NCBI GenBank assembly: GCA_043807225.1
Contig: JAZDGG010000067.1
Coordinates: 1 to 61,997, forward strand
Reading direction: 5' to 3'
From: a bacterium
GTDB taxonomy: Bacteria > Patescibacteriota > Patescibacteriia > CAZCGY01
DNA: 61,997 bases
Shown piece by piece: positions 4,629-12,211 of the stretch. The notes beneath the pieces were generated by a model. The model was not told the DNA's origin, did not search any database, and worked only from the letters and a program-made list of their open reading frames with translations. The position numbers and the translations under genes were made by a program. The stretch's first letter is position 1; every line of letters starts with the position of its first letter.

Positions 4629-5429
4629 TTATGCCACATCTCTCTTCGTGAACCTCCATAGCCCCACCCCAAACCCAACCACCGCCAATCCCACAAACAC
4701 GAGGATTGCAGTGAGGTCATACTCCCCTTTCACGAGAAATGTATTTGGGTTGAAGTAGTGGAAGAGCGAGGCGTATTTGAGTTTCTCGATCGACGGTCGA
4801 AGGCCCGAGACGATGTTGAGCACATACATCACGAGTACGACGCCGGCGAGAATCATCTGCGTCTTGCCTTTGTCGGACATGAATGCCGAGACGGCAAAGC
4901 CGAGGCCGAGGAACGCCAAACCAAACAGCTCACACATCACTCCAACGGTCACAAAGTTCATTACTTGGATCGGTATGTGGAACATCGTGGCAAACGGGAA
5001 CACCGAGGCATTGACGAGGATGTTGAACACGGTAAAGATCTTGGCTGCAGCAAGAAACCGAGCGATATAGACCGTTCGGCGTGACACCGGCTGACCGACG
5101 GTTTGGACGATCGTTTCTCGCTCCACTTCCCCGGCGAGCGAGCCGCTGGCAAGCGAGAGCGCGAGGATGATCGTCAGCACCAGCCAGAAGAGTGAGTACA
5201 TCTCGATGTTGAGGAACTTTTCGAGCGTATTGAATGAGAAGTCCTCCATGTTGAACGCTTTCTTAAACGCCTCGGGCAGTTGATCGAACATCTGTGTATT
5301 TTGCTCCATCATGTGCTGATACGTCGGGAACATCGACACATACATCAGCATCGTGCCAACACCAATGATCGTGATGACGAGAAGCATCTTCCATCTGTCG
5401 CGGATTGTTCTGAGGATAATGGGGATCAT
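4629..5429 (-). CDS. ABC-2 type transporter permease
   Basis: This 266-aa polytopic membrane protein overlaps the stop codon of the upstream ATPase gene by 4 nt. Confidence 0.8.
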   Translation of the reverse strand: MIPIILRTIRDRWKMLLVITIIGVGTMLMYVSMFPTYQHMMEQNTQMFDQLPEAFKKAFNMEDFSFNTLEKFLNIEMYSLFWLVLTIILALSLASGSLAGEVERETIVQTVGQPVSRRTVYIARFLAAAKIFTVFNILVNASVFPFATMFHIPIQVMNFVTVGVMCELFGLAFLGLGFAVSAFMSDKGKTQMILAGVVLVMYVLNIVSGLRPSIEKLKYASLFHYFNPNTFLVKGEYDLTAILVFVGLAVVGFGVGLWRFTKRDVA

Positions 5430-6310
5430 GGACTCGAAGGATTATAGAATTCCAAGAACAACTCCTCCAGCGATGCGTGCTGAACTTGGAGGTCGTGGAT
5501 CGGCGTATTCGTCAGCTGCTTGAGCAGTGGCTGGATATCGCCCTGCACTTTCACTATGGCCGTATGGTTCATCGTACTCACGACCGTCACATTCGGAAGA
5601 GCTGGGAGCGTGAAGCTACCCGCGAATTCGATAGTGACGGTATACAGATGTTTATCGTGGAGCTCAGCCATCGTTTCAATCGATACGAGTTTCCCCTCAC
5701 GAAGGACGGCGACGCGCGTGCACATCCGCTCAACTTCAGCGAGATTGTGTGAGGACATGAATATCGTTGCGCCTCGGCCACGCGCTTCACGAATGAGTTC
5801 GTACACCGTTTGCTGGAGCAGCGGATCAAGCCCGTTTGTCGGCTCGTCGAGGATAACAAGGTCAGTATCAAACAAAAATGCTAGCAGAAGGGAGAGCTTC
5901 TGACGGTTGCCCGTGGAGAGTTGCTTCGCTTTCTTTGTCGGATCGAAATCGAGACGTTTGATCAGGTCATCCGCGCGGCCTGGCTGTTTCCGCCGCAGCG
6001 CTTTTGCGTACTCGATATGCTCTTTGCCGGTCCAGCGCTCATTGAGGGAAGTCGTTGGCGGCATGAAACCGATGCGTTTTCGTGCCTCAACGCCCTGCGT
6101 ATTCGCGTTCAGACCAAAGAGTTCAGCCGAACCGGACGTTGGCCGGTAGAAATCCATGAGACAGCGGATGGTCGTGGTCTTCCCTGCCCCGTTCGGACCA
6201 AGAAAACCAAATACTTCTCCCCGCAAAACAGAAAACGAAATACCGTCAACGGCTTTGGTTGCGCCAAAGTGCTTTGTGAGATTGGTGAGTGTGACGATTG
6301 AGTCGGACAT
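5426..6310 (-). CDS. ABC transporter ATP-binding protein
   Basis: The Walker A motif is GPNGAGKTTT, the signature is LSTGNRQKLSL and the Walker B motif is LVILDEPTNGLD. I take ATG 6310 (MSDSIVTL...) rather than the TTG at 6331. Confidence 0.9.
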   Translation of the reverse strand: MSDSIVTLTNLTKHFGATKAVDGISFSVLRGEVFGFLGPNGAGKTTTIRCLMDFYRPTSGSAELFGLNANTQGVEARKRIGFMPPTTSLNERWTGKEHIEYAKALRRKQPGRADDLIKRLDFDPTKKAKQLSTGNRQKLSLLLAFLFDTDLVILDEPTNGLDPLLQQTVYELIREARGRGATIFMSSHNLAEVERMCTRVAVLREGKLVSIETMAELHDKHLYTVTIEFAGSFTLPALPNVTVVSTMNHTAIVKVQGDIQPLLKQLTNTPIHDLQVQHASLEELFLEFYNPSSP

Positions 6311-6469: not shown

Positions 6470-7231
6470 TCACGCAACAAGGTGAGTACGATACTCCTCG
6501 AGCTGTGCTCGCCATGCCTCAAAGAGCTTCGGCTGCGCAGGTTCCGTGACGAACAGCTCATCACCCGGTTGCCGGTAGTGTGGGAGCGGCACAGGTTCAA
6601 AAATCTCTCCGTTACTGCCAAGCCTGGTAACTTGTTCGTTCCGACCCGCGAACTCTGCGAAAAGATCGGCAAACTGGCGAAGACCGCCAAGACCGAGTTC
6701 TGTCCAGCTGACCACAACGGTACCGTCGCTCATCGCCAGTTCTTTCGCAACTGCTGGTGCGTCGTTGCCGGTCTCGACCAGCGCCTTGAACATTCGGAAG
6801 TTTGGCAGTGGATCCGTTGGGGAAAGAAACGTTCCAAGCGCTCGCGGGATGAGGACGATCCCGCGTCTCTCGAAGTTGATCCCCAAACCGACGCAGAGCG
6901 TAACCCGAAGATCAAACCCGCGTTCGCCATCCTCGAGTAGTTTGAAGTTCCAGTAGTTACTTGGCTTCCACCCAGGAACCATCCTTTGTGGATTCTCATC
7001 CACGAGGGTAAAGATTTCATCACGGCAGTCGGGTCGAGCCTGTTGCTTGATCCCGCGTCGAGCGAGAGCGTCAAGTACCCGTTTACCCAGCGCATACTCC
7101 TTCATCGGCTCGGAATAGGCCTCCGAACCCCCTTCGTGGAGCTTCAAACCCTTGTGAGCGGCGGCCTTTCTCAGAAGGTCAAGATATGTAAAAACATCGA
7201 CGCCCATCGCCAATATTGGCGCTGCTTTCAT
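6470..7231 (-). CDS. Hypothetical protein (253 aa)
   Basis: This is a long ORF with coding-like composition. I did not recognise any family. Confidence 0.55.
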   Translation of the reverse strand: MKAAPILAMGVDVFTYLDLLRKAAAHKGLKLHEGGSEAYSEPMKEYALGKRVLDALARRGIKQQARPDCRDEIFTLVDENPQRMVPGWKPSNYWNFKLLEDGERGFDLRVTLCVGLGINFERRGIVLIPRALGTFLSPTDPLPNFRMFKALVETGNDAPAVAKELAMSDGTVVVSWTELGLGGLRQFADLFAEFAGRNEQVTRLGSNGEIFEPVPLPHYRQPGDELFVTEPAQPKLFEAWRAQLEEYRTHLVA

Positions 7232-8867: not shown

Positions 8868-9018
8868 GGAATAAAGTATAAAGAATCGTAGGTTTCTTTC
8901 TTACACCTTTCACCCAAAGCTGTCAAGCGCCTGTATCAGAAGGGGCTATCGGGAACAATCCCGAGTTGGGGCGGAGAGGACCGTCGGGTTCCATGGAACG
9001 ACAGCCGAGAATGTCCCC

Positions 9019-9147
9019 GAAGAAACCGAAGTGAACATACGGAAGTATGCGAAGTGTCTGCTCAAAGAAGGCAGCCTAACCGAGAAACGCGAGTTGCTGG
9101 GGAATCTGCGGAGCCGGTTGATCTACAAAGACAAAATAATCACGCTT
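9019..9147 (+). pseudogene. Possible C-terminal remnant of a site-specific (serine-type) recombinase
   Basis: The frame reads [43 protein letters not shown]. From memory, this resembles the ...EKRxLLxxLGSNLxLKDKKL tails of recombinases that integrate next to tRNA genes. There is no upstream catalytic domain. It ends 48 nt from the tRNA-Trp 3' end. Confidence 0.3.
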
Positions 9148-9194
9148 GTCGCGGGACAGGAAATATCTTCGACGATACGCCCATTCAAAGGTCG

Positions 9195-9268
9195 TGGCAG
9201 GGGCGGAAGGTGTTGCGCCCTCGTTTCTGGTTTTGGAGACCAGTGTTCTACTGTTGAACTACGCCCCC
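9195..9268 (-). tRNA. tRNA-Trp (anticodon CCA) with atypical D- and T-loops, CCA encoded
   Basis: The manual cloverleaf is GGGGGCG-TA-GTTC-AACAGTA-GAAC-A-CTGGT-CTCCAAA-ACCAG-AAAC-GAGGG-CGCAACA-CCTTC-CGCCCCT-G-CCA. It is close to the E. coli tRNA-Trp layout, but the D-loop lacks GG and the T-loop lacks TTC. Confidence 0.8.
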
Positions 9269-9342
9269 ATCACGAACGCTGAATTGCATCGAATTTTCTA
9301 CGTGCGAATATCCTTTCGTACAACATTGTAGGCCCGGGCTTG

Positions 9343-9410
9343 CCCCGCGCTTGATGCGGGGTTCTGCCACTGCCCGCCCGCCATCGTTTCGCCTAGGCGC
9401 GGCGGGCGGG
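9343..9410 (-). repeat. Two GC-rich hairpins (REP-like) between the STAS-like gene and tRNA-Trp
   Basis: The first hairpin pairs CCCCGC (9343-9348) with GCGGGG (9356-9361). The second pairs CCCGCCCGCC (9373-9382) with GGCGGGCGGG (9401-9410). The same CCCGCC/GGCGGG words flank the tRNA-Thr genes. Confidence 0.6.
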
Positions 9411-9440
9411 AACTCCACACCCTTGAGTGAGAGAAATCCA

Positions 9441-9890
9441 CTACCAATTCACGGATGCTGCGTGTGCATGCTCCGAGCGAAGCCAATCTTCTGCGGCGCC
9501 TCGACTGGCAAAATAATGAATCTTATCCATGAAAAAGATTGGCGCGAGGAGGATGGCAACGATGGCCCTCTGAATCGTTGTCGCGTGCACAAGCGCGACC
9601 TTTGTCAACCGTTCGTCGCGAAGAAGATGTGTGTACCATTCGCTCGCTTCATGCGGTGGGCGGTGATCCTCGGGAACATTTTTGAGATCGACAAGCGCCG
9701 TCCAGGTTGCATCCCGAGAATGTTCTTTAAGTACAGAGAGACACTCGGCAAACCACTGCGCCTCATGAACAACAGCAGCATCTGATGAGCGCCTCCCGCC
9801 GAACGTAACGGTGATGATGCCATCCTCCGTTACTTCCCACGTCCCGCCGGTTTCGGCAAAGTTCTTCTGTCCAAGAACCTTCGCGATCAT
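9441..9890 (-). CDS. Hypothetical protein, possibly STAS/SpoIIAA-like
   Basis: A strong RBS (AAGGAGGGG) precedes ATG 9890, which lies directly after the rpmG stop. The layout and the C-terminal ...AAEDWL motif resemble STAS/SEC14-like DUF proteins. The functional call is weak. Confidence 0.5.
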   Translation of the reverse strand: MIAKVLGQKNFAETGGTWEVTEDGIITVTFGGRRSSDAAVVHEAQWFAECLSVLKEHSRDATWTALVDLKNVPEDHRPPHEASEWYTHLLRDERLTKVALVHATTIQRAIVAILLAPIFFMDKIHYFASRGAAEDWLRSEHAHAASVNW

Positions 9891-9908
9891 ATCCCCTCCT
9901 TGAACACG

Positions 9909-10064
9909 TTATTTCGTCTCTTTGTGCATGACGTGCTTGCCGCACCATCGGCAGTGTTTCTTGAGCTCAAGCCGGTTTTTGAGGATCTTCTTATTCTTGT
10001 GCGAGAAGTAATTCACGCGGTGGCAGCTTGTACACTCGAGTTTGATGAGATTATCCTGGGACAT
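9909..10064 (-). CDS. rpmG: 50S ribosomal protein L33
   Basis: This ORF is below the ORF-track cutoff. It translates to MSQDNLIKLECTSCHRVNYFSHKNKKILKNRLELKKHCRWCGKHVMHKETK, with the CxxC...CxxC pattern and the HKETK tail of L33. Confidence 0.9.
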   Translation of the reverse strand: MSQDNLIKLECTSCHRVNYFSHKNKKILKNRLELKKHCRWCGKHVMHKETK

Positions 10065-10065
10065 T

Positions 10066-10091
10066 GGAAGTGAAGAGTTAAAAGTGAAGGG
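10066..10091. repeat. Left arm of the inverted GTGAAGAG repeat flanking the four-helix-bundle ORF
   Basis: GGAAGTGAAGAGTTAAAAGTGAAGGG pairs with the reverse complement of 10491..10518. Confidence 0.6.
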
Positions 10092-10454
10092 TTAAAGTGA
10101 TTGGTTGTGAAGTTTTCCTTTGATGAGAATAGCAGTGAGTATGTTTGAAAGAGATTGATTTTTAGACGCGAGTGCTTGAATCGTGCTCGTCAAGGCAGGG
10201 TCGGCTTCTTGAAGAAGCCTCAACCAATATTCGCTTTCCTTCGAAGAGCGCAGTGCAATCTGCATATACTGAAGAAATTCTCTTTTTGAGGAACTACTTT
10301 GCGCCTCGATGATATTTGCGCCAATTGACGTTGCCGAACGAATAAGTTGTTTTCGTAGCGGGTTTTTCAATTCATGATATCGCAGGCCGCTCAGGAACCT
10401 GATGATATGTACGCTGAACTCGTATGATTTTTCTCGGATACTGACGGTTGGCAT
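10092..10454 (-). CDS. Four-helix-bundle protein (23S rRNA intervening-sequence protein / Avd-like family)
   Basis: I take the internal ATG 10454 of ORF 10092..10550. The product MPTVSIREKSYEFSVHIIRFLSGL...LIRSATSIGANIIEAQSSSSKREFLQYMQIALRSSKESEYWLRLL is typical of this family at 120 aa. Confidence 0.85.
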   Translation of the reverse strand: MPTVSIREKSYEFSVHIIRFLSGLRYHELKNPLRKQLIRSATSIGANIIEAQSSSSKREFLQYMQIALRSSKESEYWLRLLQEADPALTSTIQALASKNQSLSNILTAILIKGKLHNQSL

Positions 10455-10490
10455 AGATTCTTGTGGACCCGTCAGTCCGAAAGAGAGATT

Positions 10491-10518
10491 CTTCACTCTT
10501 AACCTTTCGCTCTTCACC
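10491..10518. repeat. Right arm of the inverted GTGAAGAG repeat
   Basis: The reverse complement is GGTGAAGAGCGAAAGGTTAAGAGTGAAG. A third GTGAAGAG box lies at 11051..11066. Confidence 0.6.
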
Positions 10519-10528
10519 GCATTCCCCC

Positions 10529-10603
10529 TCTGGAGCCGGGAATCCCGCAAAGCGGGACGACCTACTGTTTACCCGCCTGCCGATCGCCTGGAGCCGATGG
10601 TCG
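10529..10603 (-). repeat. Direct repeat copy A (75 nt, identical to 10692..10766)
   Basis: The repeat sequence is TCTGGAGCCGGGAATCCCGCAAAGCGGGACGACCTACTGTTTACCCGCCTGCCGATCGCCTGGAGCCGATGGTCG. I checked the identity base by base. Confidence 0.95.
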
Positions 10604-10690
10604 CCCCGGACTATGATCCGGGGGAACCGACGACTCGCCCGCTTCGCTTATGCGAAGCATTGCGAGCGGGCCGACGGCTTATCCCGCACT
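10589..10690 (-). pseudogene. tRNA-Thr-like element with a hairpin in place of the T-loop and without a recognisable anticodon arm
   Basis: The minus strand reads ...GTCGTCGGTT[CCCCCGGATCATAGTCCGGGG]CGACCATCGGCTCCA, against GTCGTCGGTT[CGAGTC]CGACCATCGGCTCCA in tRNA-Thr(UGU). The 5' part is replaced by a long GC hairpin. Confidence 0.6.
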
Positions 10691-10691
10691 T

Positions 10692-10766
10692 TCTGGAGCC
10701 GGGAATCCCGCAAAGCGGGACGACCTACTGTTTACCCGCCTGCCGATCGCCTGGAGCCGATGGTCG
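10692..10766 (-). repeat. Direct repeat copy B (75 nt), made of the last 15 nt of tRNA-Thr(UGU) plus 60 nt of trailer
   Basis: It is identical to 10529..10603 at an offset of 163 nt. Confidence 0.95.
10694..10727 (-). other. tRNA 3'-half-like segment (variable loop, T-arm-like hairpin, acceptor 3' strand, U, CCA)
   Basis: The minus strand reads TAGGTC-GTCCC-GCTTTGC-GGGAT-TCCCGGC-T-CCA. The acceptor strand is complementary to GCCGGGA at 10909..10915. Confidence 0.5.
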
Positions 10767-10827
10767 GACTCGAACCGACGACCGACGGTTTACAAAACCG
10801 TTGCTCTACCAGCTGAGCTACATCGGC
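10752..10827 (-). tRNA. tRNA-Thr (anticodon UGU), CCA encoded, discriminator U
   Basis: The cloverleaf is GCCGATG-TA-GCTC-AGCTGGTA-GAGC-A-ACGGT-TTTGTAA-ACCGT-CGGTC-GTCGG-TTCGAGT-CCGAC-CATCGGC-T-CCA, 76 nt with all stems Watson-Crick. Confidence 0.95.
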
Positions 10828-10897
10828 GCTCGGCGACTGGCGGGCAGGCAAAACAGCTGCGACATTTACCCGCCATAGCCCGAAGGGCATAGGCGGG

Positions 10898-10915
10898 CCA
10901 CTGAGCTATCCCGGC
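10898..10915 (-). other. tRNA 5'-half-like segment (acceptor 5' strand plus the start of the D-arm)
   Basis: The minus strand reads GCCGGGA-TA-GCTC-AGTGG. A GC-rich hairpin (10869..10897) follows where the rest of a tRNA would be expected. Confidence 0.5.
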
Positions 10916-11194
10916 AAAAGAAAGTGCGGGACTCTGACACTGGGCTACGGTGATACGACCGGATAGCTGCACTCTACCAAAAATTGCTGAAAAATCAACC
11001 CCCGCAGAGAATGGTGAAAGGATTAGGGGCAAAGAGTGGTGGGAGTTTTTCTTTTCACTCTTCACTGAATTTTTCTGGAGCCCACGAGCAGATTTTCCGC
11101 CAAAGGCAGATCCGTCTTCCACTTTTATTGAACGGGTATTCTGGCGGAGTACTGCTGACTCGCCCGAAACGCTCAGCGTTTCCCGCCAGCCGCC

Positions 11195-11270
11195 TGGAGC
11201 CGATGGTCGGATTTGAACCGACGACCTACTCCTTACCATGGAGTTGCTCTACCAGCTGAGCTACATCGGC
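11195..11270 (-). tRNA. tRNA-Thr (anticodon GGU), CCA encoded, discriminator U
   Basis: The cloverleaf is GCCGATG-TA-GCTC-AGCTGGTA-GAGC-A-ACTCC-ATGGTAA-GGAGT-AGGTC-GTCGG-TTCAAAT-CCGAC-CATCGGC-T-CCA, 76 nt. Confidence 0.95.
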
Positions 11271-11395
11271 GCCTGGCGGCGGGCGGGTCTACCAACTGAG
11301 CGGAGTTTATCCCGGTCTGCCCCGGGATGGGCAGAAATGGCGGAGCCAACTGCTTGCCCTCCGAAGGACGAAGGAAGGAGCTACATCGGCAAATA

Positions 11396-12211
11396 TTATG
11401 ACGACGGGACGGAGGGAACGCCCTCGGTGATTGCGGCGATGCGTTCGCGAAACTCCGAGAGTTTTTGATTGTCGGGATTCGCCATTTCAAGTTGCGTGAG
11501 CGTCTCAGTGGCAAGCTGTTTCTTGCCAAGAGCGATGCTCACCTCAAGAAGCGCATCAAGACTTTTTGGGTCGTTCGGCTCAATCTCGACCGCCTTTTGG
11601 CACTGTGCGAGCGCTTTCTGCAGAAAACCGGTTTCTTGGTACATCCTCGCAAGATCAATGTAGATCGCCGTCATCCGCGGAGCAAGACGTGTCGCATGCT
11701 CAAGACTCTCTGCCGCATGCGCATAGTCCTTCTTTTGGAGGTAGATTTCTCCAAGCCCCTGGAACGCTTCAGGGGTGCGCGGCTGCAGACTGACGATTTC
11801 GATGTATGCTTGTTCCGCGCGATCCAGTGTTCCCTCTTTCACGAAATGGTCTGCTTCGTTCAGAAGTGCCTGGACGCGGACTTGGGCTTCTGGTTCGGGG
11901 TGATCCTGTCGGAGCGTTTCGCGAACGCGATATTCCCGCTCGAGCTGCTCGACGCGGTTTCGCAATCGGTGAAACTGCTTTTTGGCTCCAAGTTTCACGG
12001 GCTGTGTGTATGCGCTTACCTGGTGAGAAAACGTCGTCAGCTTTCGGTACAACCGGTTCGCAATCAGGTCACCCTTCATCGCCGCAACGCGATCATGCGG
12101 AGCCGCATCAGGATCAATGGTGCGCAGAAAAATCAGCTTGCGAACAACAATGCTCACGAGAACCGCAAACGAGAGGATGAGCAGACCAAGAACGAGCACG
12201 TCAAGCATCAT
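11396..12211 (-). CDS. Membrane-anchored tetratricopeptide (TPR) repeat protein
   Basis: An N-terminal TM helix (LVLGLLILSFAVLVSIVV) is followed by TPR-like repeats (AEQAYIEIVSLQPRTPEAFQGLGEIYLQKKDYAHAAESLEHATRLAP...). Its start overlaps the tsf stop (ATGA). Confidence 0.8.
   Translation of the reverse strand: MMLDVLVLGLLILSFAVLVSIVVRKLIFLRTIDPDAAPHDRVAAMKGDLIANRLYRKLTTFSHQVSAYTQPVKLGAKKQFHRLRNRVEQLEREYRVRETLRQDHPEPEAQVRVQALLNEADHFVKEGTLDRAEQAYIEIVSLQPRTPEAFQGLGEIYLQKKDYAHAAESLEHATRLAPRMTAIYIDLARMYQETGFLQKALAQCQKAVEIEPNDPKSLDALLEVSIALGKKQLATETLTQLEMANPDNQKLSEFRERIAAITEGVPSVPSS

Follow-up and report, generated by a model that had tools for sequence, protein, structure and literature searches.

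A complete tRNA-Thr(UGU) gene lies within a disabled tRNA-Thr(UGU) gene of a patescibacterium, and similar nests recur across CPR bacteria

The DNA analysed here, which we call the window, is a 61,997-nt stretch of a patescibacterial genome (contig JAZDGG010000067.1 of assembly GCA_043807225.1). On its minus strand, a complete tRNA-Thr(UGU) gene lies between the two halves of another tRNA-like gene, which we name B and whose halves we call the shell. The complete gene had been recognized in an earlier reading of the sequence only. It was confirmed by ARAGORN and the Rfam tRNA model (74.2 bits), and it passed the canonical tRNA test, having a full cloverleaf, a Thr anticodon and an encoded CCA. 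The sequence-only reading had also noticed that a tRNA-like 5' end, GCCGGGA-TA-GCTC-AGTGG, runs into a GC hairpin on one side, and that a 3' piece on the other side carries an exact complement of GCCGGGA. The 5' end (GCCGGGATAGCTCAGTGG) and the hairpin were found where it had placed them, the hairpin lying in the D loop of B between positions 19 and 20, and TCCCGGC is indeed the exact complement. Other details had to be amended. The coordinates of the 3' piece, TAGGTC...TCCCGGC-T-CCA (10727..10694), hold, but the piece actually starts at 10734, with TAA-ACAG. Its 'T-arm-like hairpin' is present, but the stem has 7 bp and the loop 3 nt (TCCCGC-TTT-GCGGGA), and it is a GC hairpin standing in place of the T loop.

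The 5' half of B (10915-10849, tRNA positions 1-35) reads TAAATGTCGCAG-CTGT-TTTG past the hairpin, and the 3' half (10734-10694, positions 36-76) opens with TAA-ACAG. B therefore retains its anticodon stem (CTGT/ACAG), and the insert lies exactly between G35 and U36, with neither target duplication nor loss of a base; TTTG and TAA together give the UUUGUAA loop of Thr(UGU). The 114-bp insert, which we refer to as the cassette, is made of a 21-nt arm (X0), the complete tRNA-Thr(UGU) (76 nt) and a 17-nt complementary arm (Y0). The two arms pair as imperfect inverted repeats (leader/trailer duplex of -39.5 kcal/mol). As a structural description, the proposal of an acceptor stem made by the two outer pieces and enclosing an entire tRNA gene at the place of the anticodon was thus right.

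The complementarity reaches beyond the acceptor strands. The leader TCCCGCACTTTCT (10931-10919) and the trailer AGAAAGTGCGGGA (10694-10682) are exact complements over 13 nt, the longest exact complement among 2000 dinucleotide shuffles being 10, and a repeat finder reported the flanks as an inverted repeat with 23-nt arms (pair I2, 87%). The duplex formed by the flanks has an energy of -50.1 kcal/mol, as compared with -24.9 ± 4.0 in the shuffles, none of which (0 of 2000) reached the observed value, and the 266-nt unit adopts a single nested fold (z = -10.4). The complementary outer pieces are a real, non-random feature, far beyond chance. The features of the region are listed in Table 1.

Table 1. 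Features of the tRNA-Thr region, in coordinates of the window; a caret marks a junction between fragment and arm.
Feature	Coordinates	Strand	Remarks
Promoter-like element	TTGATT 10998-10993, 16 nt, TAGAGT 10976-10971	-	Ahead of the whole unit; putative function
Leader arm X1 (TCCCGCACTTTCT)	10919..10931	-	Pairs with trailer 10694-10682; homologous to the leader of the un-nested tRNA-Thr(UGU) of contig L234
B, 5' part	10898..10915	-	Acceptor GCCGGGA, U8 A9, D-stem 5' strand GCTC, D-loop AGTGG (positions 1-19); aligns with tRNA-Thr(UGU) genes
GC hairpin CCCGCC...GGCGGG in the D loop of B, 19/20	10869..10897	-	Resembles an 'empty' version of the cassette arms
B, remainder of 5' half	10849..10868	-	Degenerate D-stem 3' region (TAAATGTCGCAG), anticodon stem CTGT, loop 32-35 TTTG
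Cassette arm X0, CCTGCCCGCCAGTCGCCGAGC (CCTGCCCGCCAGTCGCC-GAGC)	10828..10848	-	17-mer shared with contig L002 and metagenome Thr loci
Complete canonical tRNA-Thr(UGU), encoded CCA	10752..10827	-	Live gene, cassette cargo; ARAGORN tRNA-Thr(tgt); Rfam 74.2 bits
Cassette arm Y0 (GGCGATCGGCAGGCGGG)	10735..10751	-	Pairs with X0
B, 3' half	10694..10734	-	TAA (36-38), ACAG, TAGGTC variable loop, GC hairpin GTCCCGCTTTGCGGGAT, TCCCGGC, U-CCA; homologous 3' shells in L007, L150
Trailer arm Y1 (AGAAAGTGCGGGA)	10682..10694	-	Pairs with X1; ends at recurrent junction CGGGAT^AA, same junction type in L002, L007, L081
Orphan tRNA-Thr(UGU) 3' half (from U36)	10589..10681	-	GC hairpins within variable loop and T loop
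75-nt exact direct repeat D2 (tRNA 3' end + Y0 + B 3' half)	10529..10603 and 10692-10766	-	100% identical, 163 nt apart
Second nest, Thr(GGU)	11182..11316	-	5' fragment of an older Thr gene (ACCGGGATA..GCTCAGTTGGTAGA, 11316-11288) cut in the D stem
Second nest, interior	Arm X 11287-11271; complete tRNA-Thr(GGU) 11270-11195; arm Y 11194-11182	-	..GCTCAGTTGGTAGA^CCCGCCCGCCGCCAGGC-tRNA-GGCGGCTGGCGGG
Outermost 5' shell of the Thr(GGU) nest	11340..11390	-	GCCGATGTAGCTC + D-loop hairpin + CAGTTGG; repeats D3/D4; homologues in L232, L237
Decayed tRNA-Thr 3' end (..CGTGGGCTCCA)	11075..11095	-	Matches the GCCCACG acceptor allele, live in L005, L239

When spliced in silico, B aligned over its full length with the tRNA-Thr(UGU) genes of relatives, the anticodon loop being restored exactly (TTTG^TAA). 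It departs from these genes by a small insertion that destroys the 3' strand of the D stem and by the GC hairpin at the T loop. ARAGORN, with and without its intron mode, and the Rfam tRNA model called the inner gene and never B, and ARAGORN still did not recognize B as a tRNA after all inserts had been removed in silico. The intron mode (0-400 nt) called none of the outer genes of the window, L002, L005 and L007 (contigs other than the window are designated by L and a number), and an Rfam search of region 9000-11700 at E <= 10 returned three tRNAs and noise only. A tRNA cut in its anticodon cannot decode. Because its anticodon is split, its D-stem 3' strand lost, its D loop occupied by a hairpin and its T loop replaced by another, B is disabled. 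We conclude that it is no longer a tRNA and that the working tRNA is now supplied by the cassette.

Comparison with relatives indicated which of the two genes was there first. The neighbouring elongation factor Ts is 58-54% identical to proteins of Patescibacteria/Kerfeldbacteria metagenome-assembled genomes (MAGs), and the order rpsB-tsf-TPR gene-tRNA-Thr(GGU)-(Tyr)-Thr(UGU)-rpmG-Trp is kept in these relatives. Closer relatives were found through the fast-evolving TPR protein, for which an exact-protein look-up gave no match and a homologue search gave proteins of 45-56% identity. In one of them, L234, the tRNA-Thr(UGU) gene is plain and un-nested; a short leader precedes it, with a conserved promoter-like element ahead of the leader. 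The element, TTGATT-N16-TAGAGT, is conserved in an alignment of the Thr(UGU) loci of the window, L232 and L234; a simple promoter scan did not flag it, as it has 8 of 12 consensus matches and stays below threshold. The leader of the window, homologous to that of L234, runs directly into the first base of B. Since B thus stands at the place of the resident gene of L234, behind a homologous element and leader, the complete tRNA is the newcomer. The position also bears on the suggestion that the locus is the decayed remnant of a Thr-Tyr-Gly-Thr tRNA cluster. This is not supported, as the pieces align end to end with Thr(UGU), and not with Tyr or Gly, at the resident Thr(UGU) position of L234.

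The shell at the Thr(UGU) locus is dispensable, being absent from L234 and represented by a 5' shell only in L232 (ending in ..ACTGTTTTG), where other arms and another live allele come next. The D-loop position that holds the hairpin in B also holds a hairpin in L081 and L150, and a tRNA-loaded cassette in L232, L237 and L239. The linker of B, TAAATGCCGCA, is identical in L081 and has a counterpart, TACATGTCGCA, in L232. Arms of the X0 type occur in distant genomes, the TPR proteins of which are about 30% identical, and are absent from the Thr(UGU) locus of the closer L232 and L234, among relatives with TPR identities of 45-52%. Arm type does not follow relatedness.

The same architecture was found in at least 15 independent contigs of Patescibacteria, ultra-small bacteria also known as the Candidate Phyla Radiation (CPR), which is large and uncultivated, and it involves all three Thr isoacceptors, Tyr and Trp. 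In L005, a complete tRNA-Tyr lies between positions 38 and 39 of a second tRNA-Tyr, the halves of which are 100% identical to the inner gene; the arms, of about 40 nt, end in CCCGCCTGCC and GGCGGGCAGG. In L002, a tRNA-Thr(GGU) occupies the anticodon loop of an almost intact Thr(GGU) and shares an 18-nt X sequence with Thr(UGU) of the window. Outer and inner acceptors differ there by a compensatory pair (GCCCATG/CATGGGC vs GCCGATG/CATCGGC), and Thr(UGU) is nested as well. A Thr gene and a Trp gene are both nested in L007, further nests are present in L232, L234, L237 and L239, and tRNA-Thr(GGU) of the window is itself nested, via the D arm. Insertion sites are the D loop or arm and the anticodon loop.

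A metagenome scan with the X0 17-mer returned at least 120 loci. Among the matches listed, the 17-mer stood directly 5' of a complete tRNA-Thr (UGU, GGU or CGU) in 10, and in each of these 10 the 5' part of a second Thr gene came immediately before it. The cut in that part falls in the D arm in some loci (GGTAGA^CCTGCCCGCC; GGTA^ in L099) and in the anticodon loop in the others (TTTG^CCTGCCCGCC ... GGCAGGCGGG^TAA). The junction GGTAGA^CCCGCCCGCC is common to the Thr(GGU) nest of the window and L234, and GGTAGA^CCTGCCCGCC is found in L084, L111, L133 and L150. Partial tRNA copies and T-loop GC hairpins are also present beside Arg, Ser and Trp genes of other CPR contigs, and 3' tRNA fragments lie downstream of tRNAs in L016, L019, L064, L071, L073 and L141. 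L064 (7166-7520, Kaiserbacteria) has a tRNA-Thr(UGU) followed by three tandem 93-nt units, each of them a partial tRNA copy (D-stem 3' strand to 3' end) in which the anticodon-stem 3' strand is replaced.

Three layers were observed in L150, L081 and L239. In L239, a GCCGATG allele with the arm CCCGCCCGCCGCCAGGC is cut in its D loop by a cassette carrying a GCCCACG allele; the window and L234 have this GCCGATG allele, with its CCCGCCCGCCGCCAGGC arm, as their live Thr(GGU), whereas in L239 it is a dead shell. The outer genes are decayed to various extents. Removal of the insert yielded a valid tRNA of the same identity in L133, L099 and L005, a cloverleaf with a damaged loop in L169, L111 and L002, and an unrecognizable sequence in the case of B, of level 2 of L150 and of L007. 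Together, the range of decay and the layers are a pattern of repeated replacement followed by decay. The inner and outer genes are always the same isoacceptor, and the inner gene is no simple copy of the outer one, since the two alleles differ at many paired positions. Alleles of the clade differ mainly at acceptor pairs 3-7. In L002 (7631-7760) and L133, the outer Thr(GGU) ends with ..GGCTCA, i.e. without a full CCA, and the inner cassette genes with ..GGCTCCA; possibly, resident alleles without CCA are giving way to cassettes that encode it.

Pairing between the outer acceptor halves was seen in 9 of 11 nests and, over all 11, in 92% of cells; the covariation score is 0.745, as compared with 0.17 in shuffles. 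The idea of a bipartite acceptor stem, which conservation and covariation in related genomes were to decide, thus withstood this comparison: the halves are present elsewhere and covary. Pairing and covariation are no proof of function, because they are equally expected if each outer gene was formerly a working allele, and the homologous outer halves of L150 (GCCGATG / CTCCGGC) and of L007 do not pair. Several details of the shell are shared between genomes with TPR proteins about 30% identical, namely the hairpin that replaces the T loop, the D-loop hairpin with its linker, and the 17-mer arm. The first, GTC-CCGC(C)..(G)GCGG-GA(C/T), was seen in the window, in L007 and, with one case in a GGU shell, in L150; the D-loop hairpin with a TAAATGYCGCA linker is shared by the window and L081.

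Since nesting recurs across CPR bacteria, live alleles appear to be serially replaced, with older ones persisting as decaying shells. We consider it probable that resident tRNA genes have been replaced, one after the other, by tRNA cassettes flanked by inverted repeats, and that the outer halves are decaying, co-transcribed relics. Among the three explanations put forward in the sequence-only reading, scars of repeated recombination or insertion come closest to this. The X-tRNA-Y unit would have arrived as a discrete cassette. In the window, the 114-bp cassette (X0 CCTGCCCGCCAGTCGCC.. / Y0 ..GGCAGGCGGG) would have split the anticodon loop of B, the resident Thr(UGU) gene. Its insertion may have been structure- or site-specific; alternatively, DNA taken up by the cell may have contained a nested allele that was then copied by homology. 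The shell of L099 has a chimeric T stem that resembles a recombination junction. The insertion would be tolerated because the cassette carries a replacement tRNA. B would still be transcribed from the upstream promoter-like element, as the leader and trailer of a precursor in which leader and trailer, acceptor halves and X0:Y0 may stack as one extended, interrupted helix capped by the live tRNA. The tRNA would then be freed by RNase P and 3' processing, possibly with RNase III acting in the helix, and the halves would be discarded. B would be one layer of an 'onion', and the neighbouring tRNA-Thr(GGU) would have been hit likewise, via its D arm.

Several observations weigh against serial replacement by cassettes. 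No integrase, IS200-type (Y1) transposase or GIY-YIG homologue was detected in the window, and no insertion enzyme was found. Such enzymes are only sporadic near nests (integrases in L236 and L161, a Y1 transposase in L161, a GIY-YIG protein in L150), as are PF05635 genes, the recurrent neighbours of nests being syntenic housekeeping genes only (TPR, tsf, rpsB). A free or circular cassette, or a cassette outside a tRNA shell, was not seen. A viral collection searched with the X0 17-mer and with the hypothetical circular junction GGCAGGCGGGCCTGCC gave chance matches only, none of them beside a tRNA and those of the 17-mer mostly in high-GC phage DNA; the scans thus provide no evidence for a phage origin or a circular form. 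Shell details kept across genomes of about 30% identity would be unexpected for purely neutral relics and suggest either an RNA or DNA constraint or horizontal spread. Inserts and hairpins lie almost only in loops, as would also be expected for a functional RNA. Finally, the invariance of the 17-mer is partly a matter of ascertainment, since the 17-mer loci were found with the 17-mer itself. Of the enzymes mentioned, those of L161 (a tyrosine recombinase and an IS200-type Y1 transposase, PF01797) are encoded at 740-1687 and 2526-2861, within 1.5-3.5 kb of the nest, and the small GIY-YIG protein (PF01541) of L150 at 2011-2268, immediately upstream of the nest.

A bolder proposal, to which we give somewhat less than even chances, is that the cassettes are a new class of CPR mobile element. 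This would be a minimal, enzyme-less 'tRNA-bearing intervening sequence', consisting of a complete tRNA between inverted-repeat arms, that inserts precisely into the D or anticodon loop of a resident gene for the same isoacceptor and spreads between lineages. Serial replacement of alleles and onion-like nests would be the outcome, and the GC hairpins of the shells would be its empty forms.

We considered the possibility that the outer halves are a functional RNA module, acting as a tRNA-like scaffold or processing signal or forming a tRNA-like RNA, in two pieces or spliced, for which the nested tRNA would be the intron. As a scaffold, the acceptor, GC hairpin and U-CCA would together form a minihelix serving RNase P or 3' processing, and RNase III would act on the long helix. 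The very stable fold (z = -10.4; flank duplex matched by 0 of 2000 shuffles), the location of the inserts in loops and the recurrence of specific shell features in distant genomes would agree with such a role. So would the pairing of the outer acceptor halves in 9 of 11 nests with strong covariation, yet covariation is equally expected from formerly functional alleles and the outer halves of L150 and L007 are unpaired. Whereas the outer genes of L133, L099 and L005 are valid tRNAs once the insert is removed, B is none even without all its inserts, and its shell is absent in L234 and represented by a 5' half only in L232. In L236, the sole Thr(GGU) copy seen is broken by about 230 nt, and some intervening sequences of the clade must therefore be removed at the RNA level. 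The junctions of the insert in B are directly opposite each other, with no bulge-helix-bulge (BHB) motif, in which a 4-bp helix separates two 3-nt bulges that each carry a splice site, and with no ribozyme match. The outer gene of the nests is redundant, being always the same isoacceptor as the inner one. As to a split or trans-spliced tRNA, the halves of B belong to one transcription unit with one promoter-like element, and joined B would lack a D stem and a T loop. A functional outer RNA is an unlikely explanation, and the nested or split functional tRNA-like RNA that had been suggested for this copy is not supported.

Alternatively, the halves might be ordinary attachment-site (att) scars left by islands that integrated at tRNA-Thr under the action of an integrase and were later deleted, no tRNA cassette being involved. 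Direct repeats of tRNA 3' parts are indeed common (the 75-nt exact repeat of the window, the 3' fragments of other contigs), but the halves of B are not direct repeats, the D2 repeat lying further downstream. Furthermore, integration gives a reconstituted gene and a displaced direct-repeat fragment, not non-overlapping halves (1-35 and 36-76) around a complete gene. Anticodon and T loops are, reportedly after Williams in 2002, the classical crossover sublocations of integrases, but the junctions TTTG^CCTGCC and GGCGGG^TAA have no overlap or core in common. An integrase gene is found beside tRNA-Thr in L236 and near the nest of L161, and there is an archaeal precedent at tRNA-Thr(GGU) (PMC3293823); the window, on the other hand, has no integrase and the insert is merely 114 bp. 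We regard att scars as a rather improbable origin of the nest, though integrase scars may be the source of the extra 3' copies at 10529-10681.

An assembly artefact, in which variants of different strains were fused at a tRNA sequence that is repeated, is very improbable: the contigs of relatives do break inside tRNA-Thr(GGU) and the window does contain a 75-nt exact repeat, but the nest of B has no long repeat itself, a path of the type R-u-R around the 75-nt repeat would require reads linking its first copy back into the second, and at least 15 contigs, some of them of 0.8 Mb and produced by independent projects and assemblers, have the architecture with differing sequences. The breaks concern the short-read contigs L235, L237, L238, L239 and L240, which end inside tRNA-Thr(GGU) just past the TPR gene. 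Nests appear to break assemblies, and the tRNA counts of CPR MAGs may be biased.

Other candidates were rejected. A group I intron, which would have a P3-P8 ribozyme core, a U just before it and a G as its last base, is not compatible with the absence of any Intron_gpI match at E <= 10 and with an insert that has just 38 nt besides the tRNA. An archaeal BHB intron is not compatible with junctions (TTTG^CC.. / ..GGG^TAA) that face each other at the base of X0:Y0 in a 4x3 internal loop, the D-arm junctions being alike. Tandem duplication with two deletions, or homologous recombination, would yield neither complementary (as opposed to identical) flanks nor nesting. Leader/trailer pairing is not a general property of CPR tRNAs, as strong pairing was confined to about 30% of the sampled tRNAs, and these are in essence the nested ones.

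The disrupted tRNA genes of archaea and algae contain introns or are split or permuted. They resemble the nests in their break in the anticodon loop or D arm, their complementary flanks, the presence of fragments beside a complete gene and the mobile DNA proposed for them. They include the tRNA-Thr(GGU) locus of the archaeon Caldiarchaeum, for which a mobile-element model of the disrupted gene has been presented (PMC3293823): the tRNA species is also Thr, and the D-arm site is 24/25 there and 19-24 here. Unlike these systems, the nests are bacterial, have no BHB motif and no sign of splicing or ligation, contain a complete tRNA for the same isoacceptor, have an outer gene that decays, and form serial layers. 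Group I introns of bacterial tRNAs (bioRxiv 10.1101/2020.01.27.920355) share the precise insertion in the anticodon loop; in contrast, the 114-nt insert of B, 76 nt of which are tRNA, has no ribozyme core and no Rfam match, and the host tRNA is not restored. Thr(GGU) of L236, cut at 36/37, is a probable example of such an intron in the same clade. This gene (5190-5450) is interrupted after a U by an insert of about 230 nt that ends in G and contains the group-I-like AAGATACAGTCTAGCC. The insert had no Rfam match, and the stretch retrieved contained no intact Thr(GGU). Directly after the interrupted gene comes an integrase gene, with a LOOT RNA motif (RF03000, 92.8 bits) further downstream, at 6495-6615.

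The intervening sequences (IVS) of 23S rRNA, which are cut by RNase III without religation and some of which encode a PF05635 protein, form another point of comparison, along with the rRNA insertions of CPR bacteria (PMC11270868). The likeness lies in the helical insertion at hairpin loops of a structural RNA (here the X0:Y0 helix in the anticodon loop and GC hairpins in the D, variable and T loops), the sporadic, non-tree-like distribution and the PF05635 gene near the nest. The nests differ in that fragmented rRNA works whereas an anticodon-split tRNA cannot, and in that the insertion brings a replacement gene. Integrative elements targeted to tRNA genes (attL/attR) likewise have flanking partial copies, supply the tRNA sequence that maintains viability and use anticodon- and T-loop sites; here, by contrast, orphan, non-overlapping halves surround a minute element with no integrase and no shared core. 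Repetitive extragenic palindromes and bacterial interspersed mosaic elements (REP/BIME), Rickettsia palindromic elements and mitochondrial GC clusters are also GC-rich imperfect palindromes that form related families within genes, including RNA genes. However, unlike dispersed palindromic repeats of the REP or miniature inverted-repeat transposable element type, the arm 10-mer CCYGCCYGCC / GGCRGGCRGG is limited to tRNA loci of the window (6 copies in 62 kb, all within 9371-11287), and one form carries a tRNA as cargo.

The window contains further tRNA remains (Table 1). The orphan Thr(UGU) 3' half with its hairpins separates the two copies of the 75-nt repeat, which may have arisen by duplication, gene conversion or an att-type event. 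Its T-loop hairpin, CCCCGGA...TCCGGGG, recurs in L005, within a Trp fragment. A stand-alone GC hairpin, CCCGCCCGCC-N18-GGCGGGCGGG (9371-9412, minus strand), has the termini of cassette arms without a tRNA and lies between a 149-aa open reading frame and tRNA-Trp. This tRNA-Trp(CCA) (9198-9268, minus strand) has a non-canonical T loop, CGCAACA, and was found by Rfam (56.4 bits) and missed by ARAGORN. A similarly odd T loop (TGCGACA) is present in L007, in a Trp gene enclosed by the two halves of another Trp gene, the T loop of which is canonical. A gene located 70 nt downstream of the nest (10092-10460, minus strand) encodes a 23S-rRNA-intervening-sequence protein of 122 aa (PF05635, E = 7e-20). 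Inverted repeats (GTGAAGAG..) at 10070-10095 and 10492-10517 flank this gene, a solo copy of the repeat follows the Thr(GGU) nest at 11051-11071, and the gene occupies the place that rpmG (L33), not present here, has in relatives. PF05635 genes are found near nests in L133 and L150 as well.

To our knowledge, group I introns are the only sequences that had been known to interrupt bacterial tRNA genes. The claim that no such bacterial arrangement had been described agrees with our survey of the literature on nested tRNA genes and tRNA introns of CPR bacteria, which gave no such report. In the literature found, neither a complete tRNA within a disabled copy of itself, nor serial nests, nor bacterial tRNA breaks of this type are described. 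The nests may therefore be a new kind of disrupted tRNA gene arrangement and possibly a new mobile cassette. They imply that the annotation of CPR tRNA loci will have to change, to take account of shells, pseudo-halves and falsely 'missing tRNAs', and they explain the breaks of short-read assemblies at these loci. They also offer a bacterial counterpart to the debate on whether split and intron-bearing archaeal tRNAs originate from mobile DNA or from ancient halves. Should the cassette prove mobile, it would be a minimal selfish element, one that persists by taking the place of an essential gene. tRNA alleles could then turn over horizontally by this route, and conflict with integrases or tRNA-targeting toxins might be what drives the turnover.

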